Origin: an uncultured Clostridia bacterium
GTDB taxonomy: Bacteria > Bacillota > Clostridia > TANB77 > CAG-508
Length of the DNA: 64,000 bases
Direction: 5' to 3'
Assembly (NCBI GenBank): GCA_934180065.1
Contig: CAKPRA010000008.1
Span: forward strand, 344-64,343
The notes beneath the pieces were generated by a model. That model saw only the letters and a list, made by a program, of their open reading frames with translations, ran no database searches and had not been told where the DNA came from. The position numbers and the translations under genes are program-made. Positions 8,708-58,033 of the stretch are shown one piece after another (position 1 is the first letter of the stretch; each line of letters opens with the position of its first letter).

Positions 8708-8749
8708 TGCATTCAAATTGCATTCAAAAATAAAAAAAATGCATTCAAA
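8708..8749. repeat. Arm-type repeat block (3x tgcattcaaa), putative integrase arm sites, attL side
   Basis: tgcattcaaa at 8708, 8719 and 8740. Block 8708-8741 is near-identical to 40923-40957. Confidence 0.6.
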
Positions 8750-10191: not shown

Positions 10192-10358
10192 AAAAAATAC
10201 CTCCATTTTCAAAAAAATATGTTTAATAAACACTTGAAAATAAAGGTATATATAGTTTATAATATATATATCAATACTTTCAAAAGTGTTGTGATTCGGA
10301 TATTGTGTTGAGCCGCGAAACTTATTCACAATGTCCTTTTTTGTTTTTATTAAGTTTT

Positions 10359-20100: not shown

Positions 20101-21291
20101 ATGAAAATGAACATTCTGAAGAAGTTATTTAAAACAGATGATGGGGATATTGATTTATGTGGAATGTTAGTAAACAAATCTGATGCTAAAGATTACATAT
20201 ATGCAATGGCAGAAGCAAAAGCGATAAACTTAATAGCTAAAACAATAGCTAAAACAGAGCTTTTAGTATTTTCAAAGAATCCCAAAACAAAGAAGATTGA
20301 AAATACTAAAAATGATACATATTACATACTAAACATTAAGCCAAATTATAATGAAAATGGAACAGAATTTTTATATAAATTAGCACTTAAATTATTAATA
20401 GATAAGGAAGTGTTAGTAGTAATAAATAAAAGACAAACAAAAAAACTTCTATATATAGCGGATAGTTTTGATAAAACAACTGATATTTTATATCCTAAAA
20501 CATTTAGAAATATAACAATTTCAGACAAATCAGGAAATTCAATTATATTAAATAAAACATATAAACAAGAAGATGTAATATACATATCCTTGCAAAATAC
20601 TAAGCTAGCGACAGCAGAAACAAATTTTAAAAATCAATTAGGAAAATTACTACAAACAGTACAAACAAAATACAAAAGAGCTAATACATCAAAATGGAAA
20701 CTAAAAAAACCAGGAGGACAATTAACCTTAAGAGATTTTGAAACTGGAAAAGACATATCGTACGAAGACTATATAAATAAAATAACAAAAGGAATTTTTA
20801 GTGATGAAGAAGCGGTTATAATGCTTGCAGAAGCATTTGATTTGGTGAATTTAAATGATAAAGAAAATGTAAATTTAACAGACTATAAGGATTTAACAAA
20901 AAATATAGGCGATGCCGTAGCATCTAGGTTTGGAATTCCACTAGATTTATTTTATGGAACAAAAACCGAAAAATCTACCGCTAATGATGATTTTATATCG
21001 TTTGGTTGTGATTTTTATTATAATAGCATAGAAGATGCTATAAATGATGCTTTTGTTGGATGTAAAGATTATTGCGACGGTGAAAGAATACAATTTAACA
21101 AATATGCAATATTCCATAAAGATATAATAGATTCTGCAAATGGAATAGATAAACTAGTGTCAAGTACATTTAGTAGAAACGAGATAAATGAATTTATAAA
21201 TTTACCACATATAGATGAAGATTGGGCGGATGAGCACAATTTAACTAAAAATTATGGAAATGTGAAAGGAGGTGTGAATGATGAAAAATAA
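20101..21291 (+). CDS. Portal protein (HK97-type)
   Basis: Size and position between terL and the prohead protease. Confidence 0.75.
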   Translation: MKMNILKKLFKTDDGDIDLCGMLVNKSDAKDYIYAMAEAKAINLIAKTIAKTELLVFSKNPKTKKIENTKNDTYYILNIKPNYNENGTEFLYKLALKLLIDKEVLVVINKRQTKKLLYIADSFDKTTDILYPKTFRNITISDKSGNSIILNKTYKQEDVIYISLQNTKLATAETNFKNQLGKLLQTVQTKYKRANTSKWKLKKPGGQLTLRDFETGKDISYEDYINKITKGIFSDEEAVIMLAEAFDLVNLNDKENVNLTDYKDLTKNIGDAVASRFGIPLDLFYGTKTEKSTANDDFISFGCDFYYNSIEDAINDAFVGCKDYCDGERIQFNKYAIFHKDIIDSANGIDKLVSSTFSRNEINEFINLPHIDEDWADEHNLTKNYGNVKGGVNDEK

Positions 21292-26568: not shown

Positions 26569-29500
26569 GTGGCAAACAATGAATTAAAAAGAGTTGGCTT
26601 AGTGTTTACGCAGGAAGGTGCAGTTGATTTTAAAAAGAGCTTACAAGAAATAAATTTAGAGATGAACAAAAATTACAATCAGTTCAAATTAACGCAGGCA
26701 CAATGGGACAAATCAACAACAAGTGCAGAAAAATTGAAGGCACAGCAAGAGTATTTAACAAATGCATATGCTATACAAGAGGATAAAGTAAAAACCTTGA
26801 AAATGCAATTATCTGAGCTTGAAAATTCTGAAAATAAAAACACCACAGCAATAAAAAAGAAAAGAAATGAGTTAACAAGTGCTCAAATAAAGTTAGAAGA
26901 TTATAAAAACAAATTAAAGGATGTTGAAAATCAACTTACTAGTAATGGAAAAAAGTTAGAAGAGTGGGGAGATAAAGTTCAAAAGTCTGGAGATAAAATA
27001 GAAAAAGCAGGTAGTAAACTATCTGCTTTTTCTGCAGCTACAGTAGCAGCTCTAGTTGGTGCATCTAAAAGTGCAATTGACTTTGAAACAGCATTTACAG
27101 GAGTGGAAAAGACTGTTGATGCAACACCAGAACAACTTGAAAATATAAAACAGGGTATCCGAGATATGGCGAAAGAAATTCCAGCAAGTACAACGGAAAT
27201 TGCAGGAGTAGCGGAAGCCGCAGGACAATTAGGAATAAAAACAGAGAACATTTTAAGTTTCTCTAAAGCCATGATTGATTTAGGTAATTCAACCAATTTA
27301 ACTGCGGATGAAGCAGCATCACAATTGGCAAAATTTGCTAATATAATGAATATGTCACAATCTGATTTTGATAAATTGGGCTCTAGTATTGTTGATTTAG
27401 GAAACCATTTTGCGACTACAGAAGCAGATATAGTAGAAATGGCGATGCGTCTTGCTGGTGCAGGAAAACAAGTTGGTCTGAGTGAAGGTCAAGTGCTAGG
27501 TTTAGCAACAGCTTTGAGCTCTGTTGGTATTGAAGCTGAAATGGGTGGCTCTGCAATAAGCAAAGCCATGGTTAAAATGCAAAATGCTGTCGATTTAGGT
27601 GGCGGAAAAATGGAAACTGTACTAAAAAAAGCAGGAATGTCTTTACACGAAATGGAATTAATGGCTGCAAATGACTCAATGGGATTTAAGGAATTGGCAG
27701 GCAGCTTAGACATGACAAGTACAGAGTTAAAAAATATGATAACAGCAGGTACTAACTTAGAAGATTTTGCCAAAGTTTCGGGAATGACAGTAGAACAGTT
27801 TAAAAAGGCTTGGAAAGAAGATGCAGCTGGGGCATTAAGTGCTTTTATACAAGGTTTAGGGCACGCAGAAGATAAAGGTGAAAGTGCTATAACAATGCTT
27901 TCCGAAATGGGATTAACAGAAGTAAGATTAAGAGATTCTTTGTTAAGAGCTGCGAATGCTGGAGAGTTATTTACCGATGCATTAAAAACAGGAACTACTG
28001 CTTGGGAAGATAACACAGCACTAACAAATGAAGCAAATAAAAGATATGCTACGTTACAAAGTAAAATACAAATAGCAACGAACAAATTGAAAGATTTAGC
28101 AATAACATTTGGTAATAAATTAACACCTAGTATAGATAAAGGAATTGGAAAAATAGAAGCAATTACAAAAAAAGTTGAAAATCTAAATGATAGCCAGGTT
28201 GAGTGGATATTAAAAACGGCAGCAGTTGTTGTTGCAATAGGACCACTTGTAAAAATACTAGGAACTGTGACATCAACAACAGGAAAGGTTGTAAAAGGAT
28301 TTGGAACATTTATACAAGCGGTTGGAGTAATGAAAGGAAAAGTTACAGCCACTTCTGAGTCAGTAAATGGATTAGCTGGTTTCCTAACAAAATTAACGAG
28401 TCCAGCAGGTATAGCAACAGCTGCAATATTAGCAACTGCAGGTGCTTTGGTATATTTTGCTACAAAAAAATCAGAAGCAACGAAAGCGGCAGAAGAATTT
28501 GCTAATAAAGCATCAGATTTCAAAAAGCAATTAGATGAATACAACAACAGCGTTGATGAAGCAGCGGGGGCTGAATTAGCACATATAGAGGCTGTGGAGA
28601 GATTAAAAAATGAATTATCTACATTAGTTGATGAAAATGGTAAAGTAAAAGAAGGTGAAAAAAGTAGAGTTCAATTTATTCTAAATGAATTAAATAGTGC
28701 ATTAGGTACAGAATACAGTTTAAATGGTGATATTATACAAAATTATAAAGACTTACAGAAAGAAATAGATGGAACAATAGAAAAGAAGAGAGCAAAAATA
28801 AAACTAGATGCAGAAGAAAGTAAATATAAAAATGCAATAGAAAAGCAAACTGAAGCAGTAGAGGGAATGAAAAAGGCACAACAAGATTTAGGTATGTCAT
28901 ATGAAGATGCCAAGAAGAAATTAGAAGATTACAACAAAAAAAGTGAAGACATGTTATATATGAGAGGAGAGTTTGCTAATTTATCAAAAATGGAATTTGA
29001 TAGAAAACAAGCAGAAATGTTACAAAAGGCAGGTGAAATTGATCAACTTAAGAAAAATATTGAAGCATATGAAAATTATAAAGGAACAGTACAAATGTGT
29101 ACAAATGATATAAAAAGATATGAGGATGATTATGCTAAGTATACAGAAGGAAAATATGAAGAAATAGGTAATACAATAATTACAGCTGCCAAAGAGTGGA
29201 AAAATGCATCAGTAGAAGAAATAAAAAATGGAATTAATGAACAGGAGAATGCATTAAAGCAATATAAAGAAATTTATGATAGAACAGGAAGTAAAATTGC
29301 AAATGCAAACGCAGAACAAGCAAAGAAAAATCTTGAGGATCTTGCTAATAACTTACAAATAAGAACTGAAAGACTTGGAGAGCTGGGGCAAACTGAAATT
29401 GAAGCCTGGAAAAATTTAGCTACACAAAGTTACAATATATATCAGGAACAATTATCAAAAATGACTCCAGAAATGCAAAAAAAGATTTCTGATGTAACAG

Positions 29501-30258
29501 GAGTAATATACCAAAAAACTCCAGATGTTTCTGCTGCCACTGAAATAATGTCCAAAGAAATATTATCAAGGTTAGATAATGATAAAGCATTTAAAGATGA
29601 AGCATTAAAAAGTATGTATAGCTACTTGAACGGTTTAAGTAATAGTGATTTAAGGAGTTTATTAACTGCAGCAGGTATACAAAATGTTGATAAAGTAATG
29701 GAAGGAATAAGAGCTGGAAATCTAGCAGAGGATGAAGGAAAGAAAATTTTAACGAGTTTAAATAATGGATTAAATAGTGGTGCTTTTAAAGGAACATTGT
29801 TTAATACAGCTAGAGATATAGCAAGTGGTATTGCAAATCGATTGTCTGTAAAATTTAATGTAAGTGGATTAAATAATGTATTTAAGACAATTACAGGATT
29901 TTTACCAGGACATAAACTAGGTCTGGACTATGTCCCAAAAGATAACTATGTAGCACGACTACATAAAGGAGAAAGGGTCTTAACTGCGGAAGAAAATAAA
30001 GAATATACAGAAGCAGAAGAAGAAAGTAGAAAGAGAAATAGTACAAGTGTAGTACATACAACAAATGTAGTTGCGAACAATGAAATAGTTGAAAGAATAT
30101 TAGAAACAAATTCAAAAATGGTTACGTTATTGCAGAGAATATTAGAAACCAATAATAAAAGCATTGTACTTGATACTGGAGAGCTAGTAGGAGCAACAGC
30201 AGATAAATATAATATAGAGCTAGAGCGAATAAGAAGAAAAGATGAAAGGGGTAGTTAA
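26569..30258 (+). CDS. Tail tape measure protein
   Basis: 1229 aa. TP901-type core (TTEIAGVAEAAGQLGI...), TM segments, long coiled coils. Confidence 0.9.
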   Translation: MANNELKRVGLVFTQEGAVDFKKSLQEINLEMNKNYNQFKLTQAQWDKSTTSAEKLKAQQEYLTNAYAIQEDKVKTLKMQLSELENSENKNTTAIKKKRNELTSAQIKLEDYKNKLKDVENQLTSNGKKLEEWGDKVQKSGDKIEKAGSKLSAFSAATVAALVGASKSAIDFETAFTGVEKTVDATPEQLENIKQGIRDMAKEIPASTTEIAGVAEAAGQLGIKTENILSFSKAMIDLGNSTNLTADEAASQLAKFANIMNMSQSDFDKLGSSIVDLGNHFATTEADIVEMAMRLAGAGKQVGLSEGQVLGLATALSSVGIEAEMGGSAISKAMVKMQNAVDLGGGKMETVLKKAGMSLHEMELMAANDSMGFKELAGSLDMTSTELKNMITAGTNLEDFAKVSGMTVEQFKKAWKEDAAGALSAFIQGLGHAEDKGESAITMLSEMGLTEVRLRDSLLRAANAGELFTDALKTGTTAWEDNTALTNEANKRYATLQSKIQIATNKLKDLAITFGNKLTPSIDKGIGKIEAITKKVENLNDSQVEWILKTAAVVVAIGPLVKILGTVTSTTGKVVKGFGTFIQAVGVMKGKVTATSESVNGLAGFLTKLTSPAGIATAAILATAGALVYFATKKSEATKAAEEFANKASDFKKQLDEYNNSVDEAAGAELAHIEAVERLKNELSTLVDENGKVKEGEKSRVQFILNELNSALGTEYSLNGDIIQNYKDLQKEIDGTIEKKRAKIKLDAEESKYKNAIEKQTEAVEGMKKAQQDLGMSYEDAKKKLEDYNKKSEDMLYMRGEFANLSKMEFDRKQAEMLQKAGEIDQLKKNIEAYENYKGTVQMCTNDIKRYEDDYAKYTEGKYEEIGNTIITAAKEWKNASVEEIKNGINEQENALKQYKEIYDRTGSKIANANAEQAKKNLEDLANNLQIRTERLGELGQTEIEAWKNLATQSYNIYQEQLSKMTPEMQKKISDVTGVIYQKTPDVSAATEIMSKEILSRLDNDKAFKDEALKSMYSYLNGLSNSDLRSLLTAAGIQNVDKVMEGIRAGNLAEDEGKKILTSLNNGLNSGAFKGTLFNTARDIASGIANRLSVKFNVSGLNNVFKTITGFLPGHKLGLDYVPKDNYVARLHKGERVLTAEENKEYTEAEEESRKRNSTSVVHTTNVVANNEIVERILETNSKMVTLLQRILETNNKSIVLDTGELVGATADKYNIELERIRRKDERGS

Positions 30259-30975
30259 ATGGAAGAATATATTGAATTTTTTGATATTAATAATAACCTA
30301 ATATTAAATACATTTAAAGACTTTGGTTTGTTAATACAAAGTATAACTATCCCAGAAGCGGAAATAAAAGAAGAAATAGAAGAAATACCAGGTTCAAGTG
30401 ACTTTTTAGATTATACAGAAGCTATAAACAATGATGTTAATTATAATAGAAGAACAATACCAATAGAGCTATCTGGATTTAAACATAGAAATGAGTTTTT
30501 AACAGTTTATAGTGAATTTTTAAATAGATTACACGGTAAAAAAGTTAAAATGATTTTAAGTGAAGAGCCAAACTTTTATTGGATAGGTAGAGTTTCTGTT
30601 GGAGATATTAATGCATACAACATAACGAGATCATTAACACTAAATGTAGTTTGCTACCCATATAAATATGAAATAAATAGTTCTGCAGATGACTGGTTAT
30701 GGGATCCATTCAATTTTGAAAATGGAATTATAAATGAATGTAAAGATTTAGAAATTAATGGAACTTTAGATATAACAATATATGGAAGAAGAAAACATGT
30801 AATTCCAACGTTTGATATAGCAGGAAATGTAACAGTAACATTCAACGATGCAAAATATGAACTAACAGAAGGAACAAATGAAGTACTAGACATTGAAATA
30901 TTGCCAGGTGAAAATAAATTAAAATTTGAAGGAACTGGAACTGTTACAGTTGATTATAGAGGAGGTAGCTTATAA
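30259..30975 (+). CDS. Distal tail protein (Dit)
   Basis: Size and position directly after the tape measure gene. Confidence 0.65.
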   Translation: MEEYIEFFDINNNLILNTFKDFGLLIQSITIPEAEIKEEIEEIPGSSDFLDYTEAINNDVNYNRRTIPIELSGFKHRNEFLTVYSEFLNRLHGKKVKMILSEEPNFYWIGRVSVGDINAYNITRSLTLNVVCYPYKYEINSSADDWLWDPFNFENGIINECKDLEINGTLDITIYGRRKHVIPTFDIAGNVTVTFNDAKYELTEGTNEVLDIEILPGENKLKFEGTGTVTVDYRGGSL

Positions 30976-32525
30976 TGTATCAGATAACGTGTGATAATCA
31001 AATTCTATATGATATACGCTCTAGGGACAGAATTGTAACATCTCCTAAATTAATACTAGAAACTGGAAAAAATGGCAGTTTAAGCTTTAGAATACCACGA
31101 ACAAATCCAATGAGAGATAAAATAAATCTAAAGAAAAGCATTTTTAAAGTTTTTCAAATTGATGTTGTAAACAATAAAAAAATATATAATCAATTGTTCA
31201 GAGGAAGTGCATATTCCACGGAAGAAGATTTGTATTTACGAGGAACTGTTGATGTTGAGGGAGAACTTGCATTTTTTAATGATAGTATTGTTAGACCATA
31301 TAACTGGACTGGTGATGTAGAGCCATATTTCCAAAAACTTATAAATGAGCATAATACAAGGGTAGATGATACACGAAAATTTATTGCAAGAAAATGCACG
31401 GTTAAAGATTCAAACAATAATATTACTAGAGCAAACGAGAACTATCCAACCACAAAAGAAGAAATGAACAATAAATTAATTGACTTACTAGGAGGACACT
31501 TTGAAACTGAAGAAATCGATGAAGTTATAGATGGAAAAAGGGTTGAAAAAATATACATAGATTATTTAGCAAACTATGATAAATACAATAAACAATCAAT
31601 TGTTTTTCAAAAAAACTTGATAGATTTTACAAAATGTATAACAGCACAAGATGTAAAAACAGTAATAATACCATTGGGAAAAAAGCTAGAAAATGGCGAT
31701 TATACAACCATAAAAAGTGTAAATAATAACAAGGATTATGTAGAAGATCAATCTGCAATATCCATTTTTGGAAGAATAGAAGGAACAGTAACACACGAAA
31801 ATGTTACTGTTCCTTCTACATTACTAAAAAGAGGAATAGCAGATTTAGCAAATAGCATAAATACAGAAACAACAATAGAAGTAACCGCAGCAGACCTGCA
31901 CGAATTAAATGTTAACATAGAAGCACTAAGAGTAGGCAGAATGACAAGGGTTATATCTAAACCACATAAATGGGATAAATATATGCTATTGTCTAAACTA
32001 GAGCTAAATCTAGATGATATAAAATCCAGCAAGATAACACTGGGAGCAACATTAAAAACATATACAGAAAATCAAGTAGAAAAGCTAAAAAAGGTAAATA
32101 CAATAACAACAGATATAAAAGGAATAAACAATACAGTTGAATCCGTAAACAATGAATTAAAGACAATAAATACAGTTATAACAGAGATACCAACAGAATA
32201 TGTAAAAACAGAAATTTTCAATGATTTTAAAACAGAAATAAATAACAAAGTTGGAAGAGTATATAGAATTAAAGGAAGTGTAGCAAGCTATAACGTATTA
32301 ATCAAGTTAACAAATGTTGAAATTGGAGATGTATACAATTGTAAGGATACAGGAGCAAATTATGTATTCACGGAAGAAGGTTGGGATAAATTTTCTGAGA
32401 ATTATGATTTTAGTATTTATATTACTAATGCGACAGCAAATAAAACATTTGCAACAATTGAAAATTTTAATAAATTAATTGAAAGAGTTGATGCTTTAGA
32501 AAAAAATGAAGGAGGTACGAATTAA
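30975..32525 (+). CDS. Tail-associated protein (Tal, prophage tail endopeptidase-family N-terminus)
   Basis: Position after Dit, 516 aa, coiled-coil C-terminus. Confidence 0.6.
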   Translation: MYQITCDNQILYDIRSRDRIVTSPKLILETGKNGSLSFRIPRTNPMRDKINLKKSIFKVFQIDVVNNKKIYNQLFRGSAYSTEEDLYLRGTVDVEGELAFFNDSIVRPYNWTGDVEPYFQKLINEHNTRVDDTRKFIARKCTVKDSNNNITRANENYPTTKEEMNNKLIDLLGGHFETEEIDEVIDGKRVEKIYIDYLANYDKYNKQSIVFQKNLIDFTKCITAQDVKTVIIPLGKKLENGDYTTIKSVNNNKDYVEDQSAISIFGRIEGTVTHENVTVPSTLLKRGIADLANSINTETTIEVTAADLHELNVNIEALRVGRMTRVISKPHKWDKYMLLSKLELNLDDIKSSKITLGATLKTYTENQVEKLKKVNTITTDIKGINNTVESVNNELKTINTVITEIPTEYVKTEIFNDFKTEINNKVGRVYRIKGSVASYNVLIKLTNVEIGDVYNCKDTGANYVFTEEGWDKFSENYDFSIYITNATANKTFATIENFNKLIERVDALEKNEGGTN

Positions 32526-36660: not shown

Positions 36661-38109
36661 ATGAGAAATAGAATATTAATAATATTAGCAAGTATATTAG
36701 CAATAATAGCAACATTATGCAATATTTATATACCAAATCATAAAATCAATAACACAATACAAGAAACACAAAATATAATACAAGAAGAAATAAAAAATGA
36801 CAATGTAACAGTATCAGAATATGTCTATGGAGAGTCAAATGATGTAAAAGATGCAACAGTAAATAATAAAGAAGATATTTCTACAAAGCAATTACCAGAA
36901 ACAACAGAAACAGAGGAAAAAAATGTTGAAGAAGAAATAACAACGGAAATAGATGCTCAAATAGAGCAAGAAAATATAAGTTATAATGGAGCTAGTACAG
37001 GGAATGGACTAGCTCTTTTAGGTGCATATCAAGGACTAACATACTACTCACAGGCTGATTCACGATGGGCAAGTGTAATGTATTCTAGCAAAAATGATCC
37101 AACACAGACAATGAAAGCAAGTGCCTGTGGACCTACATCTGCCGCAATGGTTATTTCTAGCTCTAAAGGAAGTATATTACCAACAACATTAGCAAGTTTA
37201 GCAGTAAGTAATGGGTACAGAACTAAAAATTCAGGAACAGCATGGAGCTTCTATCCATTTATAGCAGATTACTTTGGATTTAGCGAGTATTACACAACAG
37301 ATAAATTAGAAACTGCATTAAATTATCTATCTCAAAAAAACAATGATGGAACTAGCAAATATTATATAATATGCAGTTGTGGTAGTGGTTTATTTACATA
37401 TAACGGACATTACATAGTATTAACAAGTTTAGATGAAAATACAATGCAGGTATATGATCCATATTTATACAATAACAAATTCGCAACAGCAACAAGAAAA
37501 AAGGCAAATGTAACTATATCTGGAAATTCTGTGTTTGTTAACAAAGAAGATTTCAGAAAATATGCAAACTATAAAAACTTTTGGATTTTTTCTAATGATA
37601 AAGGAAGCGGAAACTCTAATAATACTACTATAAATAATGTAACCAATTATACAAAATATGTTGCAACAAAAAGCTCAAGTTTAAATGTAAGAAAATCAGC
37701 AAGCATTAATTCAAGTAGGATTTATTCGCTTACGAAAGGAACTAAAGTGAATGTCACAGAAACTAGCGGAAATTGGTCAAAAATAAGCAGTCCGGTTACA
37801 GGTTGGGTAAATACAACATATCTTTCATCTACGCAAGTGTACTCAATAGTGAACGAAAGTTCAAAGAATTATAAAATTGGTACATATAAGGTAACAAGTA
37901 ATTTACATGTTAGAAGCGGTCCAGGAACAAATTATAAAATAAAAATATATAACCAATTAACAAATAATGCTAGAGCTCAAAATAAACGATTAGGAAATCA
38001 ATATTACAACGGATATTTAAAAGGTGTAATTTGTACAGTTACGCTGGTAAAAAGTAACTGGGGCAAAACTACATCTGGCTGGATCTGTTTAGATTATTGT
38101 AAAAAATAA
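36661..38109 (+). CDS. Cell-wall hydrolase/endolysin: N-terminal signal-anchor, C39-like cysteine peptidase domain, two SH3b domains
   Basis: TM ILIILASILAIIATL. ACGPTSAAMV ... NGHYIVLTS ... DP (Cys/His/Asp). Two SH3b-like repeats (LNVRKSASINS..., LHVRSGPGTNY...). Confidence 0.65.
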   Translation: MRNRILIILASILAIIATLCNIYIPNHKINNTIQETQNIIQEEIKNDNVTVSEYVYGESNDVKDATVNNKEDISTKQLPETTETEEKNVEEEITTEIDAQIEQENISYNGASTGNGLALLGAYQGLTYYSQADSRWASVMYSSKNDPTQTMKASACGPTSAAMVISSSKGSILPTTLASLAVSNGYRTKNSGTAWSFYPFIADYFGFSEYYTTDKLETALNYLSQKNNDGTSKYYIICSCGSGLFTYNGHYIVLTSLDENTMQVYDPYLYNNKFATATRKKANVTISGNSVFVNKEDFRKYANYKNFWIFSNDKGSGNSNNTTINNVTNYTKYVATKSSSLNVRKSASINSSRIYSLTKGTKVNVTETSGNWSKISSPVTGWVNTTYLSSTQVYSIVNESSKNYKIGTYKVTSNLHVRSGPGTNYKIKIYNQLTNNARAQNKRLGNQYYNGYLKGVICTVTLVKSNWGKTTSGWICLDYCKK

Positions 38110-40845: not shown

Positions 40846-40922
40846 CAGAAATATTGACAAATTTAGAGATTACTTATAGAATAAAGATAATGTGATTAGA
40901 AGTATAATAGAAAATATTAAAT

Positions 40923-40957
40923 TGCATTCAAATTGCATTCAAAAAATAAAAAAAGTG
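40923..40957. repeat. Arm-type repeat block (2x tgcattcaaa), attR side
   Basis: Near-identical to 8708-8741. Confidence 0.6.
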
Positions 40958-44233: not shown

Positions 44234-46984
44234 ATGAGTGATGAAAAGAAAGATTATGGTAAAACATTAAACTTACCAGAAACAGACTTCCCTATGAGAG
44301 GAAATTTACCAGAAAACGAGCCAAAAATATTTGATGAAATATTTGACAACGACTTATACGAAAAAATGGTAAAGAAAAATGAAGGAAAAGAGCCTTTTGT
44401 ATTACATGATGGACCTCCATATGCAAATGGTGAAATTCATGCAGGCCATGCAATTAACAAAGTATTAAAAGATACAATTGTAAGATATAAAAATTTAAAA
44501 GGATATTATACTCCATTTATTCCAGGATTTGATACACATGGAATGCCAACTGAAAAAAAAGCAATTGAAAAATTAGGACTAAACAGAGATGAAATACCAG
44601 TTATTAAATTCAGAGATACGTGTAAAGAATTTAATCAAGAATACATAGAAAAACAAACTGAAGGATTTAAAAGATTAGGTGTTCTTGCAGATTGGAAACA
44701 TCCATACATAACATATCAGCCACAAATGGAAGCTAAACAAATTGGTGTATTTGGAACAATGTATAAAAAAGGTTATATTTATAAAGGATTAAAACCAGTA
44801 TATTGGTGTACAGATTGTGAAACAGCTCTAGCAGAAGCTGAAATTGAATATAAAGATGTAAAGTCAAATACAGCATATGTAAAATTCCCAGTAATAGAAG
44901 GAAAAGGATTATTTGATGAAAGAGATACTTATGTTGTAATTTGGACAACAACACCTTGGACATTACCTGGAAACACAGGTATAACAATAAGTCCAGAATT
45001 TAAATATAGTTTAGTAGAAGCACAAGGCGAAAAATTAATAATGGCATCTGAACTTGTAGAAAAAGTTATGAAAATAGCTGAAATAGAAGATTATAGTGTA
45101 ATAAAAGAATATGATGGAAAAGATTTAGAAGGAATTATATGTAAACATCCATTTATGGAAAGAGAATCTAGAGTCGTATTAGGAAGTAATGATACTATAT
45201 TAGTTGACCTTGAAACAGGTACTGGTGCTGTACATACAGCTCCTGGATATGGTAAAGAAGATTATCTTTGCGGATTAAAAAATAAATTAGATATGGTTGT
45301 TACAGTAGATAGTAAAGGTCACCAGACAGAAGAAGCTGGACCTTTCGCTGGTATGTATTATGCTAAATCTGATAAAGAAATTATAAAATGGTTAGATGAA
45401 AATGGATACTTATTAAAAAGACAAGATATAGTTCACTCATATCCACATTGTTGGAGATGTAAAAAGCCTGTTATATACAGAGCTACAAGTCAATGGTTTG
45501 CTTCAATAGATGGATTCAGAAAAGAAGCTCTTGAAGCTATAAAAGGTGTAAAATGGTATCCTGCTTGGGGAGAAGAGCGTATAACAAAAATGATTGAAGA
45601 TAGAAATGATTGGTGTATATCTCGCCAAAGAACTTGGGGAGTTCCACTTCCAATATTCTATTGTAAAAACTGTGAAAAAGAATATGTAACACCAGAAAGT
45701 TTAGATAAAGTTCAAAATATAGTTAAAGAATGTGGTACAAATGCGTGGTTTGAATTAACAGAAAAAGAGCTTATGCCAGAAGGAGCAAAATGTTCTGAAT
45801 GTGGATGTACAGAATTTGTAAAAGAAACAGATATAATGGATGTGTGGTTTGATTCTGGATCAACACATGAATCAGTTTTAGCAGAAAGAGGATTACCAGA
45901 AGCTAATTTATATTTAGAAGGAAATGATCAATACAGAGGATGGTTCCAATCATCATTATTAACATCAATAGCGACAAAAAATAAAGCACCATATAAAGAA
46001 GTTGTAACACATGGAATGCTTGTTGATGAACAAGGTAGAAAGATGTCAAAAAGCCTTGGAAATGTAATTTCTCCACAAGATATAATAAAAGATTATGGAG
46101 CTGATATTTTAAGATTATGGGTATTATCATCAGACTATAAATCAGAGCTTGCATTATCAAAAAATATATTAAAACAAGTTTCAGAAGTATACAGAAAAAT
46201 ACGTAACACTGCAAGATACATATTAGGAAATATCCACGACTTTGATGTAAACAAACCAGTAGCATATGAAGATTTACAAGAAATTGACAAATGGGCTCTA
46301 ACAAGACTAAATAAATTAATAAGCGAATGTACAAAATCATATGATGCATACGACTTCAACAAAGCATATCAAGCAATAAATACATTCTGTGTATTAGACA
46401 TGAGTAATTTCTATTTAGACATAATAAAAGATAGATTATACACAGCAAAACCAGAATCAACAGAAAGAAGATCAGCTCAAACAACAATGTACGAAATACT
46501 AGAAGCACTTGTAAAAATCATAGCTCCAATGGCAAGCTTCACAGCAGAAGAAATATGGAAATATATGCCTCATAAAGATGGCGAAAATACAGAAAGTGTA
46601 ATGCTTTCATATTATCCAGAAGTAAATGAAAAATACGAAGACAAAGAGCTAGAAGCAAAATGGGATGAAATATTAAAAATAAAAGAAGCGGTAGCAAAAA
46701 AATTAGAAGAAGCAAGAGCAGAAAAAGTAATAGGACATTCACTAAACGCAAAAGTAATAATATCAGCAGAAGGAGAAGAATACAAATTCTTAAATGACAA
46801 CAAAGACTTACTAAAAGATGTATTTATAGTATCAGGATTAGATTTAGTAGAAGGTACATCAGACATAAAAGTACAAGTAGCCGAAGGTGAAAAATGCGAA
46901 AGATGTTGGAAATATGATATAACAGTAGGACAAGACAAAGAAAATCCAACAATATGCCACAGATGTAGTGAAGCTTTAAAATAG
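44234..46984 (+). CDS. ileS: Isoleucine--tRNA ligase
   Basis: HAGH (HIGH-type) motif, KMSKS, C-terminal zinc-finger CERCW...CHRC. ATG 44234 has better RBS spacing than 44228. Confidence 0.95.
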   Translation: MSDEKKDYGKTLNLPETDFPMRGNLPENEPKIFDEIFDNDLYEKMVKKNEGKEPFVLHDGPPYANGEIHAGHAINKVLKDTIVRYKNLKGYYTPFIPGFDTHGMPTEKKAIEKLGLNRDEIPVIKFRDTCKEFNQEYIEKQTEGFKRLGVLADWKHPYITYQPQMEAKQIGVFGTMYKKGYIYKGLKPVYWCTDCETALAEAEIEYKDVKSNTAYVKFPVIEGKGLFDERDTYVVIWTTTPWTLPGNTGITISPEFKYSLVEAQGEKLIMASELVEKVMKIAEIEDYSVIKEYDGKDLEGIICKHPFMERESRVVLGSNDTILVDLETGTGAVHTAPGYGKEDYLCGLKNKLDMVVTVDSKGHQTEEAGPFAGMYYAKSDKEIIKWLDENGYLLKRQDIVHSYPHCWRCKKPVIYRATSQWFASIDGFRKEALEAIKGVKWYPAWGEERITKMIEDRNDWCISRQRTWGVPLPIFYCKNCEKEYVTPESLDKVQNIVKECGTNAWFELTEKELMPEGAKCSECGCTEFVKETDIMDVWFDSGSTHESVLAERGLPEANLYLEGNDQYRGWFQSSLLTSIATKNKAPYKEVVTHGMLVDEQGRKMSKSLGNVISPQDIIKDYGADILRLWVLSSDYKSELALSKNILKQVSEVYRKIRNTARYILGNIHDFDVNKPVAYEDLQEIDKWALTRLNKLISECTKSYDAYDFNKAYQAINTFCVLDMSNFYLDIIKDRLYTAKPESTERRSAQTTMYEILEALVKIIAPMASFTAEEIWKYMPHKDGENTESVMLSYYPEVNEKYEDKELEAKWDEILKIKEAVAKKLEEARAEKVIGHSLNAKVIISAEGEEYKFLNDNKDLLKDVFIVSGLDLVEGTSDIKVQVAEGEKCERCWKYDITVGQDKENPTICHRCSEALK

Positions 46985-47042
46985 GGAAAGGGGAAAAGGG
47001 GACGGTTCTCTTTTCCCAGATTTGGGAAAAAGGGACAGTTTA
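46984..47042 (+). repeat. G-block repeat copy 1 (REP-like)
   Basis: gggaaaggggaaaaggggacggttctcttttcccagatttgggaaaaagggacagttta. Confidence 0.85.
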
Positions 47043-47186
47043 CCTGCCTAATGCAAGTTTAAAGGAAGTTATATAGTTTTTTTAGAATGCATTAAAAAAC
47101 ATAATAAAATAAGGGGTTTATAAATAGAAAATGAGGGGGAAAATGATAAATTTACTCCATCATTTTCTTTTTTTGAAAGGAGAAAA

Positions 47187-47951
47187 ATGCCTCGTAAAGC
47201 AAGAAAATATATAGAAAGTAATTATATTCATGTTATAGTCCAAGGGATTGACAGAGAAAAAATTTTTTATAATAGTATACATATACGAAAATATTTAAAA
47301 GAGATTAGATCAAAGATTGAAGAATATGAAAAGGTTAAAATTTTAGCTTATTGTATTATGAATAATCATGCTCATTTTTTGATATATGCTGAGAATATTA
47401 ATGATTTATCTAAATTTATGCAAAAAGCAAATGGTGCATATTCTAATTTTTATAATAAACATAATAACAGAGTAGGTTTTGTGTTCAGGGATAGGTTTTT
47501 TACGCAAGAAATATGTAGTCAGCGCCAATTATTCACGTGTTTAAAATATATACATAATAATCCGGTAAAAGCAAAAATTACAAATACTCCAGGACAGTAT
47601 AGATATTCAAGTTTTAATGAATTTTTATATGGTCCCAAGATTATTGATAAAGAAGCTGTTAATATTTTATTTGAAAATTGTAATGATTACAAAAAGTTTT
47701 TCATTAGTATTCATAATATGGAAGATGATGAAGAAATAAAAATTAAAGATATAAAAGAGGAATGCTTTGAGGAGTTTATTGAGAATTTTCAAAAGCAGTA
47801 TAACATAAGAATAAGTGATTTAAAAATGAATAGAGGAATGTTGGAAAAATTTGTAAAAGAATCAAGGGAAAGGACAACTGTGAAAATTGAAAAAATGGCT
47901 GAAGTAACTGGTATTTCTAAAAGTGTTATAGGTAGAATTGCAAAAAAGTAA
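47187..47951 (+). CDS. IS200-like Y1/HUH transposase-family protein (RAYT-like) with C-terminal HTH
   Basis: HUH NNHAHFLI. YxxxNPV as YIHNNPVKA. C-terminal VKIEKMAEVTGISKSVIGRIAKK HTH. Flanked by inverted copies of the G-block repeat. Confidence 0.7.
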   Translation: MPRKARKYIESNYIHVIVQGIDREKIFYNSIHIRKYLKEIRSKIEEYEKVKILAYCIMNNHAHFLIYAENINDLSKFMQKANGAYSNFYNKHNNRVGFVFRDRFFTQEICSQRQLFTCLKYIHNNPVKAKITNTPGQYRYSSFNEFLYGPKIIDKEAVNILFENCNDYKKFFISIHNMEDDEEIKIKDIKEECFEEFIENFQKQYNIRISDLKMNRGMLEKFVKESRERTTVKIEKMAEVTGISKSVIGRIAKK

Positions 47952-48004
47952 AATAAAAGTGAGGCAGCTAAAAATTGTTACTTTTTTTCAGCTGCCTCAT
48001 AAAA

Positions 48005-48054
48005 GTGTCCCTTTTTCCCAAAACTGGGAAAAGAGAACCGTCCCGCTTTCCCAC
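48005..48054 (-). repeat. G-block repeat copy 2 (inverted)
   Basis: rc = gggaaagcgggacggttctcttttcccagttttgggaaaaagggacac. Confidence 0.85.
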
Positions 48055-48057
48055 AAA

Positions 48058-48777
48058 TTAAATTTTTAAACTACTTTCCAATGCTAGTATAATCATATCA
48101 TTTAAAGATTTTTCTCTTTCTTCAGAAGAAATTTCTTGCTTTTTATAATGTGAATCAACAACAGTTAACAAGCATGAAGCTTTTTTATTTAAATATTTTG
48201 CTGTGTAGAATAAAGCAAAAGATTCCATTTCTGCTGCTGTAATATTAAATTCTGTAGGTAATCTGTTTAATAATACGTTTATATCTTCTATATAATAATC
48301 AAAACATTCACTGCATAAAACATTTCCTTCAATAAGTTTTATATTTTTTTCATGAGCAGTTTCTTTTATAATAGAATTAATATCTTCGCTTGCTTTTATT
48401 ATGTGACAATCATTGTTATTCAAAGCTTTTGCGAAGTTCCCTTCTGTATAGGATTTGTCAACCAGTATAGTATCAAAAATATTTAAATCTGCAGAATAAG
48501 CTCCACAAGAGCCGATTCTTATAATAGTTTCAACATTATAAAATTTGTATAATTCATAGCAATATATTCCCATACTAGGCATACCCATACCTGTTGAGAA
48601 TACAGTAATTTCCTTTCCTTTATATGTTCCAGTATATGCTAGAATATTTCTAACAGTATTAACCAATCTGTAATTTTCTAAAAAATTTTCAGCAATATAT
48701 TTAGCTCTAAGTGGATCTCCTGGAGCTAAAACAATTTTTGCAATATCTTCTTCTTTTGCATTTATATGTGGTGTCAT
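48058..48777 (-). CDS. deoD: Purine nucleoside phosphorylase, DeoD type
   Basis: MTPHINAKEEDIAKIVLAPGDPLRAKYIAENFL...STGMGMPSMGIY...EMESFAL. Confidence 0.9.
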   Translation of the reverse strand: MTPHINAKEEDIAKIVLAPGDPLRAKYIAENFLENYRLVNTVRNILAYTGTYKGKEITVFSTGMGMPSMGIYCYELYKFYNVETIIRIGSCGAYSADLNIFDTILVDKSYTEGNFAKALNNNDCHIIKASEDINSIIKETAHEKNIKLIEGNVLCSECFDYYIEDINVLLNRLPTEFNITAAEMESFALFYTAKYLNKKASCLLTVVDSHYKKQEISSEEREKSLNDMIILALESSLKI

Positions 48778-48974
48778 AAATTTACCTCCTTTGTAAAATT
48801 TGTTTGATTATATCATTATTAATATTAATTAGCAAATATAATTATTGTTATACTTGAAAATATGAAAATATAAATATATAATTTTGATATATTTATAAAT
48901 GGATTATAAATATGATTAAATTGGATTTCAAAAATAGATATTATATTTTAGAAAATTATAATTGAAAAGGTGAA

Positions 48975-49025
48975 AGTGTCCCTTTTTCCCAAAAATGGGA
49001 AAAGAGAACCGTCCCCTTTTCCCAA
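48975..49025 (-). repeat. G-block repeat copy 3 (inverted)
   Basis: rc = gggaaaaggggacggttctcttttcccatttttgggaaaaagggacac. Confidence 0.85.
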
Positions 49026-49039
49026 AAGGAGAGATTTTT

Positions 49040-49705
49040 ATGGATGAATGTAAGATTATTAATTTGTATGACTTAAATCAAACTATTGCGAAAGAAGTTT
49101 TCACTGGCTGTGAATATCCATGGGAAGTTTTGCCTAAAATTAAAGATTTTATTATTAATTTAGGTGAATCTTTGAATAAAGAAGATTATGATAAAATTGG
49201 TGAGAATATCTGGGTGGCTAAAAATGCTAAAATTGCACCTACTGCATATATCAATGGTCCAGCTATTATTGGAAAAAATGCTGAAATTAGGCATTGTGCT
49301 TTTATCAGAGGTAATGCTATAGTTGGTGAAAATGCTGTTGTAGGAAATTCTACGGAACTTAAAAATGTTATTCTATTTAATAATGTTCAAGTTCCTCATT
49401 ATAATTATGTTGGTGATTCAATTTTAGGATATAAATCACATATGGGAGCAGGATCAATTACTTCAAATGTTAAGTCTGATAAGAAATTGGTGGTTGTAAA
49501 AAATGGTGATAAAAAAATAGAAACCGGATTAAAGAAATTTGGAGCAATGATTGGTGATAATGTTGAAGTTGGTTGTGGTTCAATATTAAATCCAGGAAGT
49601 GTTATAGGAAAAAATAGCAATATTTATCCGCTATCTTCAGTAAGAGGTTTTGTAAAAGCAAATAGTATTTATAAAAAACAAGGAGAAATAGTTGACAAAG
49701 AGTAA
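49040..49705 (+). CDS. Left-handed beta-helix (hexapeptide-repeat) transferase, GlmU C-terminal-like
   Basis: ATG 49040 after aaaggagag (the listed 48995 start translates the repeat). Hexapeptide repeats throughout. Confidence 0.7.
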   Translation: MDECKIINLYDLNQTIAKEVFTGCEYPWEVLPKIKDFIINLGESLNKEDYDKIGENIWVAKNAKIAPTAYINGPAIIGKNAEIRHCAFIRGNAIVGENAVVGNSTELKNVILFNNVQVPHYNYVGDSILGYKSHMGAGSITSNVKSDKKLVVVKNGDKKIETGLKKFGAMIGDNVEVGCGSILNPGSVIGKNSNIYPLSSVRGFVKANSIYKKQGEIVDKE

Positions 49706-49906
49706 AAAAAAGTGTATTATAAAAAATGTTGCCAGCTGATGTTGGTAAACCCGTTTGTGTTTCATGCATTGATTAGATTTGATTTTTTTGTATGAGGATT
49801 AAATAAATCCACCTAGTATGTGTTTCATACTAGGATTTTTCTTTTTTTGTCGAATTTTGCTTGTAAAATTACAACTTTAATGATAAAATAATTATATATT
49901 AAAAGT

Positions 49907-49953
49907 AGATTAAAAAAAAACCCCTAAAACAGGGGACAATTTTTTTTAATCTA
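49907..49953. terminator. A-tract/GC hairpin/T-tract structure in the pyrG leader (bidirectional terminator or attenuator)
   Basis: tagattaaaaaaaaa cccct aaaac agggg aca attttttttaatcta, 40 nt upstream of the pyrG ATG. Confidence 0.55.
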
Positions 49954-49993
49954 TTTTTTTGTTTTTATAATAATTTTAATGGAGGGTATTTAA

Positions 49994-51601
<1,608 letters not shown>

Positions 51602-51688
51602 AATAGTACTTGAAAAGTGATTATATCTATTGTATAATAAAAAAACCCAAAAGGATAAATTCTATTATGTAGAAAGGAGCTACCAAAT

Positions 51689-52000
51689 ATGATATCTGAA
51701 GGTCGGAGATTGTATAGTGAAGTAGCGATAGTAAAAACGCTTAAGGAATTAGACCAGGAGAAGGTGGAGAGAGGAAAGGTATACATAAAGCCTCTATATT
51801 CTAGCAAAAATATAGAAATGTCAATGCTATATTTATCTCCTGGTGCAAAAGTCAGAGAGCATAAGCATACTGTGGATTCTGAAATTTATGAGGAGGTTGA
51901 TGGAAAATATTCTGAAGTGTGTAATAAGGGGGAATCACATTCCCTTGAAAATTCATCAACCCACAGATGGTTGGTAATTTTATCTGTAAAGCATAGGTGA
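51689..52000 (+). CDS. Small cupin-domain protein
   Basis: REHKHTVDSEIYEEVDG...GESHSLEN cupin motifs; RBS aaaggag. Confidence 0.55.
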   Translation: MISEGRRLYSEVAIVKTLKELDQEKVERGKVYIKPLYSSKNIEMSMLYLSPGAKVREHKHTVDSEIYEEVDGKYSEVCNKGESHSLENSSTHRWLVILSVKHR

Positions 52001-52105
52001 TGTATGATGTCAGGCTTAAGTTTAAGTCTGGCATCTTTCCTTTGTGAAAAATATGTGAATTCTAATAAAATAATATTGACATTTAATTCCAATGGGTATA
52101 AATTA

Positions 52106-52132
52106 TTAGCAGTCTAGCAAATAGACTGCTAA
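52106..52132. promoter_or_regulatory. CIRCE operator (HrcA binding site) with upstream promoter
   Basis: TTAGCAGTC-N9-GACTGCTAA, one position per arm off the consensus TTAGCACTC-N9-GAGTGCTAA. TTGACA at 52076. Confidence 0.85.
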
Positions 52133-52178
52133 TAATTTTTATACATATTATTAATACAAGCTAAATATATATTAATAA

Positions 52179-52486
<308 letters not shown>

Positions 52487-52487
<1 letters not shown>

Positions 52488-52536
52488 GGAAAAGGGGACG
52501 GTTCTCTTTTCCCAGATTTGGGAAAAAGGGACAGTT
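52487..52536 (+). repeat. G-block repeat copy 4 (in the groES-groEL spacer)
   Basis: gggaaaaggggacggttctcttttcccagatttgggaaaaagggacagtt, identical to the core of copy 1. Confidence 0.85.
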
Positions 52537-52595
52537 TTCTTTAGCAAAAAATATTTCTTTAAAATGAAGAATATAGTTTAAAGAAATTTTTCTAA

Positions 52596-54278
<1,683 letters not shown>

Positions 54279-56599: not shown

Positions 56600-56653
56600 A
56601 TGTGAATAGTAATAATATGAAAGCTTATTTGATAAAAAAAGATTTACATAATA

Positions 56654-56810
56654 TTGACTTTGCTGTGAAAATTTGGTATAATATAAATGTCTATTGGCAT
56701 GAAACAATGACACTAGTGCAAATAGTGCTAGACGTCGTATAAACTTCTTCGTAGTATATAGGGTATAAACTGCGAATACAAACGCCATGAATTATGGCAG
56801 AAAGGCAAAA
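56654..56810 (+). promoter_or_regulatory. Promoter + ~120-nt conserved structured leader, copy 1
   Basis: TTGACT(56654)-17 nt-TGnTATAAT(56677). Hairpins 56713-56731 and 56784-56798. Homologous to 57385-57538. Confidence 0.6.
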
Positions 56811-57302
56811 ATGGAAAAAGAAAAAATGAAAGAAACTCTTACAGCTCTTGATGAAATAAGAGAAGATATGTCATCAATACATGCAGAGTTTCAGGAGATT
56901 GACACCAATTTATCCTATTGCAGAGAATTTTTAAGCCAAGAAATTTCAGGTTGGAAAGATGTAACTGAATACTGTAATTTAAAGCTGAAAGCATTTAATG
57001 AAAAGCTGATATCGTTTGAAAAAAATGTGGAAGCTTTATCAAAAAATCTGAAAGAGGTTGAATCTGAATTATCTAAGGATAATTGTCAATTCGGACAAAT
57101 AATGAATATTCAGGTTAAAGACATGCCGGTATTATCCCAAAGGACAAAAAACGCATGTAAATATGCAGGTATTTGTTATATGGTTGAGTTCATTACTAGA
57201 TTTAAAACACGTAAGGAAATACTTGAAATTCGAAACATTGGTGTTAAATCTGTTAATGAAATCACAGAAGCACTGGCAAAATATGGAATAGAATTAAAAT
57301 GA
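56811..57302 (+). CDS. Helical protein with RpoA alpha-CTD-like (HhH) C-terminal domain, paralogue 1
   Basis: MEKEKMKE start (aaagg RBS). C-terminus LSQRTKNACKYAGICYMVEFI...ILEIRNIGVKSVNEITEALAKYGIEL resembles the RNAP alpha C-terminal domain. Confidence 0.6.
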   Translation: MEKEKMKETLTALDEIREDMSSIHAEFQEIDTNLSYCREFLSQEISGWKDVTEYCNLKLKAFNEKLISFEKNVEALSKNLKEVESELSKDNCQFGQIMNIQVKDMPVLSQRTKNACKYAGICYMVEFITRFKTRKEILEIRNIGVKSVNEITEALAKYGIELK

Positions 57303-57335: not shown

Positions 57336-57384
57336 CTTTTTGATATTGATAATTCTTCTTTTAGCAATAATAATTTACATAATG

Positions 57385-57538
57385 TTGGCTTCGCTGTTAA
57401 AATTTGGTATAATATGGTTGTTTATTGGTATGTACCAATGACACTAGTGTAAATAACACTAGACGCATAAACCTCTTCGTAGTATATTGTGTATAAACTG
57501 CGAATACAAACGCCACAAATTGTGGCAGAAAGGACAAA
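57385..57538 (+). promoter_or_regulatory. Promoter + conserved structured leader, copy 2
   Basis: TTGGCT(57385)-17 nt-TGnTATAAT(57408). Hairpins 57444-57462 and 57512-57526. Confidence 0.6.
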
Positions 57539-58033
57539 ATGGAAAAAGAAAAAATTAATGAAATGTTAAATAATATGGAGGAAGCCAGAGCAAAAATGGC
57601 GCCTTTGTACGAGGGAATTAAAGAATTCGATTCTAATCTCGTATATTTAACAAAATTTTTAAAACAACGGACAATAGGTTGGCAAAACGTACTTGAATAC
57701 TCTAACAAAAAAATTAAATCATTTAAATGTGATTTTATGGAGTTTTCAAAGTTTATTGAGGTTTTGGAAAATGATTTTGCAGAGCTCCAAGAAATTTTGT
57801 CAGAAGAAGAAAATCCGCCATATGGAGAATTTGTTAATCTCCGTATTGATGATATTCCAGAGTTGACAGAACGAGCAAGACATGCTTGCAAGAGAGTCGA
57901 GATAAATACGTTAGGTGACTTTGTAATAAGAATATCCTCAAAAAAAGATTTATTAGACATCAAAAATGTTGGTGTAAAAACCTCAAAACAAATTATAGAA
58001 GTTATGTCTAAATATGGTATTAAATTGGAATAA
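57539..58033 (+). CDS. Helical protein with RpoA alpha-CTD-like C-terminal domain, paralogue 2
   Basis: MEKEKINE...; C-terminus LTERARHACKRVEINTLGDFV...LLDIKNVGVKTSKQIIEVMSKYGIKL. Confidence 0.6.
   Translation: MEKEKINEMLNNMEEARAKMAPLYEGIKEFDSNLVYLTKFLKQRTIGWQNVLEYSNKKIKSFKCDFMEFSKFIEVLENDFAELQEILSEEENPPYGEFVNLRIDDIPELTERARHACKRVEINTLGDFVIRISSKKDLLDIKNVGVKTSKQIIEVMSKYGIKLE

Follow-up and report, generated by a model that had tools for sequence, protein, structure and literature searches.

A single-copy Y1 transposase gene between conserved-loop hairpin repeats in an uncultured gut clostridium: a probable TIRYT-type locus

Introduction

What kind of genetic system is formed by a solitary Y1/HUH transposase gene that lies between inverted copies of a short G-rich repeat in the genome of a clostridium? 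The question was raised by a 64-kb stretch (hereafter the window) of contig CAKPRA010000008.1 from an uncultured Clostridia bacterium (assembly GCA_934180065.1). An earlier note, made from the letters of the window, had read the gene at 47187..47951 (+) and four copies of a ~50-nt repeat as a system similar to that of the repetitive extragenic palindromic (REP) sequences and the REP-associated tyrosine transposases (RAYTs), with a distinct repeat family. The analysis described herein supported this reading and refined it in two respects, namely, that the protein is placed in the TIRYT branch of the Y1 transposases, also known as TnpA-Y1 subclass 2.1, and that the repeat unit is a single predicted hairpin with a conserved loop. 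We consider it probable that the locus represents a 'TIRtron/REPtron' of a member of the uncultured low-GC gut Clostridia.

Few 'domesticated transposases' are as widespread as the RAYT-like Y1 proteins. For their largest branch (TIRYT, subclass 2.1, probably Group 1), we know of no established substrate structure or function, and to our knowledge the TIRYT/subclass 2.1 branch is not associated in the reviews with populations of REPs or of REP doublets (REPINs). In the work of Di Nocera, De Gregorio & Rocco (2013; PMC3733652), TIRYT genes were reported to lie between terminal inverted repeats (TIRs) with the motif GGGGWSAS (GGGG[AT][CG]A[CG]), the TIR families being moderately abundant and found in dimers or clusters; a Bacillota repeat family was not reported there. 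Quentin et al. (2018; PMC6006769) classified the TIRYTs as TnpA-Y1 subclass 2.1, comprising long proteins with a C-terminal helix-turn-helix (HTH) domain of the Bac_DnaA_C, HTH_23 or HTH_28 type, and found no REP-like secondary structures beside subclass 2.1 genes. Among the RAYTs, Group 1 is the widest-ranging group, Clostridia included, and is mostly single-copy, with flanking 16-mers at ~12 per replicon (Bertels et al. 2017; PMC5581495), and according to Bertels and Rainey, REPINs occur only with Groups 2 and 3 (10.1101/2021.07.10.451892).

Results

The gene at 47187..47951 (+) encodes a protein of 254 aa (the Y1 protein), in which both motifs named in the earlier note were read, i.e., the HUH motif NNHAHFLI (H61/H63) and YIHNNPV, which contains the catalytic Tyr residue Y121 followed by N125-P126; a YSS motif is located at residues 140-142. 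The protein matched Pfam Y1_Tnp at E = 1e-14, and H61, H63, Y121, N125 and P126 were invariant across 52 homologues. The best family match was NCBIfam NF047646 (REP_Tyr_transpos) with 71.4 bits, against a cut-off of 80 bits, whereas the IS200 family NF033573 scored 26.8 bits with a cut-off of 55. When the sequences in Additional file 5 of Di Nocera et al. (2013; PMC3733652) were used as the BLASTP comparison set, the published TIRYTs gave E values of 2e-26 to 1e-18, the best being Geobacter gbm_2474 (34% identity), followed by pca_3049, sml_1152 and Desulforudis dau_2153, and the RAYTs of P. fluorescens and E. coli gave values of 2e-7 and 0.003, respectively.

An AlphaFold model of the Y1 protein, built on the alignment of the 52 homologues, had a mean predicted local distance difference test score (pLDDT) of 89. 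Its top fold match in the PDB was 4ER8, the E. coli RAYT with a REP hairpin (E = 3e-7, target-normalised TM score of 0.69), and the TnpA proteins of IS608 and ISDra2 ranked behind it; a PDB sequence search with the single Y1 protein as query returned nothing relevant. The C-terminal HTH predicted in the earlier note was recovered in this model as a helical region at ~194-253 with three short helices at 216-253, together with weak HTH-family matches among the 52 homologues (HTH_3 in 15, HTH_11 in 15, HTH_23 in 4, and also HTH_19); the window protein itself gave no significant Pfam HTH match. Judged by its sequence, the Y1 protein belongs to the TIRYT/subclass 2.1 branch and not to the classical RAYTs of the GTAG-REPs. 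Nor does it cluster with the ordinary IS200 transposases, as is evident from the family scores (71 vs 27 bits), the TIRYT E value of 2e-26, the best fold match and the occurrence of one locus per genome.

This last feature was revealed by tblastn, which detected a single Y1 copy in the window and, among ~85 listed repeat-bearing blocks, a single Y1 locus in each metagenome-assembled genome (MAG). The same or a near-identical gene was present on gut-metagenome contigs with its neighbours unchanged. The order ileS-Y1-deoD was kept in genomes whose Y1 proteins are 64% (Clostridia MAG GCA_017625035.1) and 55% (GCA_045643465.1) identical to that of the window, the neighbouring IleS and DeoD proteins being 82-84% and 88% identical across these genomes. 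Four homologues of ~50% identity, picked by protein (loci L209-L212), were located in other housekeeping contexts, and two of them, from two other species, share the order ROK-Y1-T2SSF. No tnpB or other mobile-element gene was found beside the Y1 gene in the loci examined. With one copy per genome, a conserved housekeeping context and no neighbouring tnpB, the gene thus behaves like that of a RAYT and not like an IS200 gene. It is single-copy and vertically inherited within sub-clades; in different sub-clades, the cassette composed of gene and flanks occupies different loci, and the flanks always accompany the gene.

The window has the base composition of low-GC chromosomal DNA (28% GC), and the 50-mer has two perfect matches in it, 46991-47040 (+) and 52487-52536 (+), and one match with 3 mismatches, 48974-49023 (-), where none was expected from 100 shuffles. 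A fourth copy with 4 mismatches, at 48003-48052 (-), was recovered via the 17-nt sub-repeat and an inverted-repeat scan. All four sites given in the earlier note were therefore real, with coordinates that were 1-7 nt off and included a segment (46984-46990) that falls outside the 50-mer. The two sub-repeats per unit, GGGAAAA(R)GGGAC(R)(S)TT, were likewise found in every copy, spaced 33 nt apart (8 matches vs 0.02 expected), and a looser 25-nt pattern with 3 mismatches allowed yielded nothing beyond the four sites in the whole 64 kb. In three of the four copies, the gap between a stop codon and the start of the repeat is 0-5 nt, with the repeat reading in the same direction as the gene upstream.

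Copy 1 (46991..47040, +), the upstream flank of the Y1 gene and an exact match to the 50-mer, is made up of a full hairpin unit, GGGAAAAG-GGGACGGTTCT-CTTTTCCC, and a half unit, GGGAAAAA-GGGACAGTT. This copy adjoins the ileS stop codon (TAG, 46982-46984), where an extra partial arm, GGGAAAG, occupies 46984-46990 outside the 50-mer, and a related unit holds the same post-ileS position in loci L007 and L009. Copy 2 (48003..48052, -), the downstream flank, is the most diverged (4 mismatches) and has the 5' arm GGGAAAGC; it is inverted with respect to copy 1 (51 nt, 92% complementary), and, read on its own strand, begins 5 nt past the deoD stop codon. As had been described, copies 1 and 2 converge on the open reading frame (ORF) 47187-47951 (+), and copies 2 and 3 bracket deoD (48058-48777, -), which was identified by a PNP_UDP_1 match. 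Copy 3 (48974..49023, -) is located in the divergent spacer between deoD (-) and a hexapeptide-repeat gene with its probable start at 49041, and its minus strand was flagged as terminator-like. A mechanically called ORF (48995-49705) begins within this copy; since the gene start is called at ATG 49041 in conspecific contigs, copy 3 lies upstream of the gene and is non-coding. Copy 4 (52487..52536, +) is identical to copy 1 and is placed in the groES-groEL spacer, and the groES stop codon (TAG) shares its final base with it.

A different inverted repeat, TGAGGCAGCT(20 nt)AGCTGCCTCA, was read from the sequence at 47960..47999, in the gap from the Y1 stop codon to copy 2. It is outside the hairpin repeat family and may constitute a bidirectional terminator for the Y1 gene and deoD. 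In an Rfam search of 46000-53500 at a permissive E-value, no family was found for the repeat, and the sole match was a chance one to mir-84 on the 47960..47999 hairpin.

Alignment of the units on their core gave the consensus [T/G]GGAAA(A/T)(G/T)-GGGACGGTTCT-CTTTTCC[A/C], in which an A/T-rich stem of 5-14 bp, variable between lineages, surrounds the 11-nt loop GGGACGGTTCT. The 50-mer of the window corresponds to one full unit plus a half unit, GGGAAAAA-GGGACAG/C, and this composition accounts for the two mutually exclusive hairpins proposed in the earlier note; both appeared in single-strand folds, but with energies only modestly more favourable than those of shuffles (z -1.2 to -3.1). Conservation of the loop extends from Clostridia to Omnitrophota, Planctomycetota and Nitrospirota, and at protein-picked loci the identical loop is found within the unrelated stems AAGACGAG/CTCGTCTT, AGCGCGC/GCGCGCT, TGAGTCAA/TTGACTCA and AGGCA/TGCCT. 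A perfect stem of at least 5 bp enclosed the motif in 29% of the family loci vs 5% of random anchors, and stem position 8 of the Clostridial units was found to covary, with T-A in 74 units and G-C in 42 (69% paired vs 42% in shuffles). From these comparisons of sequence, the unit has the architecture of a hairpin with a conserved loop.

Dispersal of the unit was assessed by scanning one genome per species for GGGACGGTTCTHWTTTCCM, whereby at least 117 blocks of 8 kb were matched. About 85 of the listed blocks come from MAGs of uncultured Clostridia with low GC content, among them Candidatus Scatovivens sp. and Clostridium sp. CAG:492; the window's own genome was not among the matches listed. 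In RGIG8562, the genome of the 64%-identical homologue, there are at least 13 strict matches and at least 19 cores in at least 10 separate 8-kb blocks; strict matches number at least 12 in each of MGBC122997, RGIG9027 and RGIG5890 and at least 11 in Scatovivens sp., and per MAG at least 11-19 units are spread over at least 5-11 separate 8-kb blocks. The repeat is confined to four sites within the window, the situation that the earlier note had regarded as unfavorable to its reading, but the related genomes disperse the same unit, as the strict matches of RGIG8562 demonstrate.

In the listed MAG blocks, 112 of 130 units (86%) were outside predicted ORFs, as called by a simple longest-ORF heuristic, though 85% of the DNA was predicted to be coding. 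Seventy of these 112 were downstream of a same-strand gene, the core often lying 7-20 nt past the stop codon, and a T-rich tract followed about half of the units (51%, vs 15% in the background). Unit pairs less than 200 nt apart comprised 19 convergent, 6 tandem and no divergent ones. The convergent doublets are spaced 43-126 nt in the related MAGs, and within one genome their arms (~56 nt) are conserved and their spacers variable; the window contains no doublet shorter than 200 nt. Both the REPIN-like pairing and the intergenic bias that the earlier note had suggested looking for were accordingly present in these blocks. The orthologous groES-groEL spacer of MAG CAPZDM (L041) is ~100 nt shorter and has no unit, indicating gain or loss at this site. 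No consistent target sequence was discerned when the bases flanking the units were inspected by eye. The local clustering of copies near the gene, seen in the window and in L006/L007, would fit an action in cis.

In RGIG5890 (L018, L033, L042, L105 and L117), near-perfect palindromes of ~50 nt were observed that consist of two head-to-head units with a 5-nt centre, and extra partial units (GGGACGGTTCT-CGGTGGAAATG...) are stacked on either side of them, so that compound arrays are possible. A phage-borne unit was also considered and rejected, as the scan of viral contigs gave two chance-like matches without arms.

The association of the gene with the unit extends beyond the window. Convergent units surround the Y1 gene in eight of eight Clostridial lineages (the window, L007, L009, L122 and L209-L212), and in three other, distant phyla (L062, L064 and L088) an intact Y1 homologue with 29-35% identity and an RGRP C-terminus is located between units; in L121, a truncated Y1 reading frame lies beside a unit. 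Many of the non-Clostridial matches in the DNA scan were not due to chance, given their AAAG/CTTT arms and inverted partners. These MAGs are labelled Aminicenantes, Omnitrophota, Planctomycetales, Nitrospirae, Propionicimonas, Syntrophaceae and Blautia, with GC contents of up to 72%, and the core (A)AAAG-GGGACGGTTCT-(C/A)TTTTCC, often in inverted doublets, was read in L011, L025, L034, L038, L057, L062, L064, L075, L082, L087, L088, L090, L094, L110 and L116.

A protein-first scan of metagenome contigs provided 540 relatives, of which 80 were kept. Inverted repeats with GGGG[AT]C[AG]G were found around the gene in ~40 of the 56 loci having both flanks, and by its letters this motif corresponds to the GGGGWSAS motif of Di Nocera et al. 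The protein-picked loci exhibited a motif continuum, GGGGTCAG, GGGGACAG, GGGGACGG and GGGGTCGG, and 8-10 of the 80 had the exact GGGGACGGTTC(T) core. In RGIG8562, the units that flank the gene (L007, 9832-9886 and 10762-10817) have the degenerate cores GGGACGTTTTT and GGGACGCTTTT, and the dispersed copies keep GGGACGGTTCT; the gene-flanking copies may be decaying, or may have been selected as poor substrates.

Other features of the window include a ~32-kb prophage at 8696-40954 that is free of the hairpin repeat. Among its genes are those for the integrase (8752-10329, -), the large terminase (18415-20091), the portal protein (20101-21291), the minor-tail/tape-measure protein (26569-30258), the tail endopeptidase (30975-32525) and the SH3/C39 lysin (36661-38109). 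The prophage is bounded by 44-nt direct repeats (8696-8739 and 40911-40954) with the core TGCATTCAAATTGCATTCAAAAA, which are probably attL and attR, and is absent from the conspecific contigs L001-L003, where position 8550 of the window is joined straight to 40992, between tsaE and ychF.

A mosaic was observed in ileS of L001/L002 (7200-9200; window 44400-46400), where an inner segment of ~2 kb is 77-86% identical to the window between flanks of 97-99% identity, resulting in an IleS protein that is 84% identical vs 99% for the adjacent Y1 protein; ileS of L003 is 99% identical to that of the window throughout. The mosaic looks like an allelic replacement by recombination. Whether the divergent ileS allele of L001/L002 is connected with repeat copy 1 was examined, and a connection was rejected, the mosaic segment being internal to ileS and not bounded by the repeat. 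Finally, two direct repeats of ~245 nt (56624-56870 and 57355-57598), 79-80% identical and ~730 nt apart, were found in a strain-divergent region upstream of a WG_beta_rep gene, which is called in L001 at the equivalent of window ~60.9 kb.

Discussion

Taking the probable 'TIRtron/REPtron' nature of the locus as a basis, we propose the following mechanism, for which IS608 TnpA and E. coli TnpA-REP serve as the analogues. The Y1 domain would bind the unit as a single-stranded DNA hairpin, reading the bases of the loop, and would cleave nearby by means of Tyr121 and an HUH-bound metal. On the same analogy, we infer that the Y1 protein mobilises the units, singlets and doublets being occasionally copied or moved in trans, preferentially near the gene of the protein. 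The cassette of gene plus flanks has itself changed its location a few times as the clade evolved. Many units also resemble terminators and may have been co-opted for this role, which is compatible with either mobile repeats or a domesticated protein. Since one and the same core is accompanied by differing C-termini (RGRP tail or HTH), the Y1 domain is the likelier reader of the loop, and the HTH may add double-strand or targeting contacts.

Several observations weigh against this proposal. The score of the Y1 protein for REP_Tyr_transpos is below the NCBIfam cut-off, the copy number of the unit is in the tens and not in the hundreds as in REPINs, and all four copies of the window lie inside 5.5 kb around the Y1 gene. 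These copies, moreover, are found at identical sites in three conspecific contigs (95-99% identical) with no polymorphism. As for the hairpin itself, stem positions 3-7 are nearly invariant and thus uninformative on pairing, the loop-proximal pairs are often unpaired, the single-strand fold energies of the repeat are unremarkable, and the palindromic arms could equally serve for double-stranded binding by the HTH.

The main rival explanation is that the Y1-HTH protein has been fully domesticated by the host, for instance as a nuclease or regulator with a function at replication forks, terminators or gene boundaries, and that the hairpins are its fixed cis sites and have ceased to move. Bertels and Rainey have proposed such a domesticated host role for Group 1, 4 and 5 RAYTs, and REPINs occur only with Group 2/3 RAYTs according to the literature (10.1101/2021.07.10.451892). 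The single-copy and syntenic nature of the gene, its HTH domain, the identical sites in the three conspecific contigs, the proximity of the units to the housekeeping genes ileS, deoD and groESL, and the T-rich tract after half of them are all in line with this explanation. Fixed sites, however, agree poorly with unit positions that vary between species, as in the groES-groEL spacer, and with a cassette that resides at different loci in each sub-clade, always with its flanks. In addition, the exclusively convergent doublets mimic the gene-flanking ends, as miniature derivatives of a transposable cassette would, and the catalytic residues are invariant. We therefore regard full domestication as unlikely, albeit as an explanation to be taken seriously.

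Much less probable is the explanation that the repeats act chiefly at the level of RNA or transcription, for instance as intrinsic terminators or as stabilisers of mRNA 3'-ends, and that they spread independently of the Y1 gene or arose by convergence and are near it by coincidence. The location of 70 of the 112 non-ORF units just downstream of a same-strand gene, the T-rich tract behind 51% of the units and the terminator-like character of copy 3 would be explained thereby. A coincidence is nevertheless difficult to reconcile with a Y1 gene that is flanked in eight of eight Clostridial lineages as well as in three other phyla, and with the inverted GGGG[AT]C[AG]G flanks of ~40 of 56 protein-picked members; a conserved loop of 11-15 nt is also atypical of terminators, and no Rfam family was matched.

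Least credible is an ordinary autonomous IS200/IS605 insertion sequence having the repeats as its ends, which would be consistent with the Y1_Tnp domain, the hairpins on either side and the fold likeness to IS608 and ISDra2 TnpA, but is opposed by the NCBIfam IS200 score of 26.8, far under the cut-off of 55, by the one copy per genome (listed blocks) in a conserved housekeeping context, by the 55-64% protein identity at one locus, which has diverged beyond that of the neighbours yet fits long residence, by ends that are inverted copies of one unit and not distinct left-end and right-end hairpins, by the majority of unit copies being without a gene, and by the absence of tnpB.

Comparison with known systems places the locus closest to the TIRYTs. 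The window protein shares with them the MPR start, C(I/L)MxNHxH, Y-I-x-x-NPV, (W/Y)SS and the C-terminal HTH extension, and its gene likewise lies between inverted repeats, whose motif resembles GGGG[AT][CG]A[CG] in part. The second half-unit of the window, (A)GGGACAG/C, fits the published motif, whereas the window core GGGGACGG fits 7 of the 8 positions, with G for A at position 7. The locus differs from the published TIRYTs in its host, an uncultured gut Clostridium, and in the C-terminus of the window protein, which is a short HTH beyond the usual position of the RGRP tail; compared with subclass 2.1 as described, the window-type repeat is distinguished as a conserved-loop hairpin, backed by the unrelated stems in other lineages.

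With the REP/RAYT and REPIN systems (Nunvar 2010; Bertels & Rainey 2011; Ton-Hoang 2012), the locus has in common a single-copy Y1/HUH gene amid inverted extragenic hairpin repeats, the vertical inheritance, 4ER8 as the best structure and, in related genomes, the dispersal of the repeat downstream of genes and the inverted doublets with variable spacers. It differs from them in that a 5' GTAG tag is missing and conservation resides in the loop rather than in tag and stem, in the copy number (tens vs hundreds), in the low similarity to the E. coli RAYT (0.003) and in the family score below the NCBIfam cut-off. CGTC-tagged REPs, which have a stem of 8-9 bp, a loop of 4-5 nt and an unpaired terminal CGTC tag (Di Nocera 2013, PMC3733652), were rejected as a match, since the reverse-strand CGTC of the present unit is inside the 11-nt loop and not a terminal tag, and the loop is far larger. 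The low copy number of flanking repeats in Group 1 RAYTs, likened here by description, resembles that of the present unit, but Bertels et al. (2017; PMC5581495) gave no repeat consensus or doublets for this group. The TnpA proteins of IS200/IS605 (IS608, ISDra2) share the Y1 HUH fold and the catalytic motifs, and their recognition of single-stranded hairpins serves as the mechanistic model; the window gene is distinguished from theirs in being neither multi-copy nor autonomous, in its identical inverted ends, in having no tnpB and in its extra C-terminal domain. A string search of the literature with the core 10-mers returned unrelated primer sequences only.

Conclusion

The window locus is a further example of the published TIRYT/RAYT kind and not a new kind of system; papers of 2013 and 2018 had already presented the arrangement, the class of protein and a related motif of the repeat. 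The Clostridial repeat family, the convergent-only doublets and the TIR as a cross-phylum conserved-loop hairpin appear to be absent from the literature compared. More tentatively, and with slightly more doubt than belief on our part, the inverted repeats of the TIRYT/subclass 2.1 branch may in general be single-stranded hairpins, in which a loop of 11-13 nt (GGGG[AT]C[AG]G...) is recognised and the stems are free to vary, with GGGACGGTTCT kept near-unchanged from Clostridia to Omnitrophota, Planctomycetota and Nitrospirota, and with REPIN-like populations of convergent doublets in the Clostridia. If true, this hairpin-TIR reading would contradict the views that REPINs exist only with Groups 2/3 and that subclass 2.1 is without REP-like structures. 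The locus and its relatives provide the TIRYT branch with a candidate substrate that can be synthesised, i.e., a short hairpin with an 11-nt conserved loop such as TGGGAAAAGGGGACGGTTCTCTTTTCCCA, for which the natural stem variants could be used in specificity tests, and with evidence for small REPIN-like repeat populations in the Bacillota of the animal gut.

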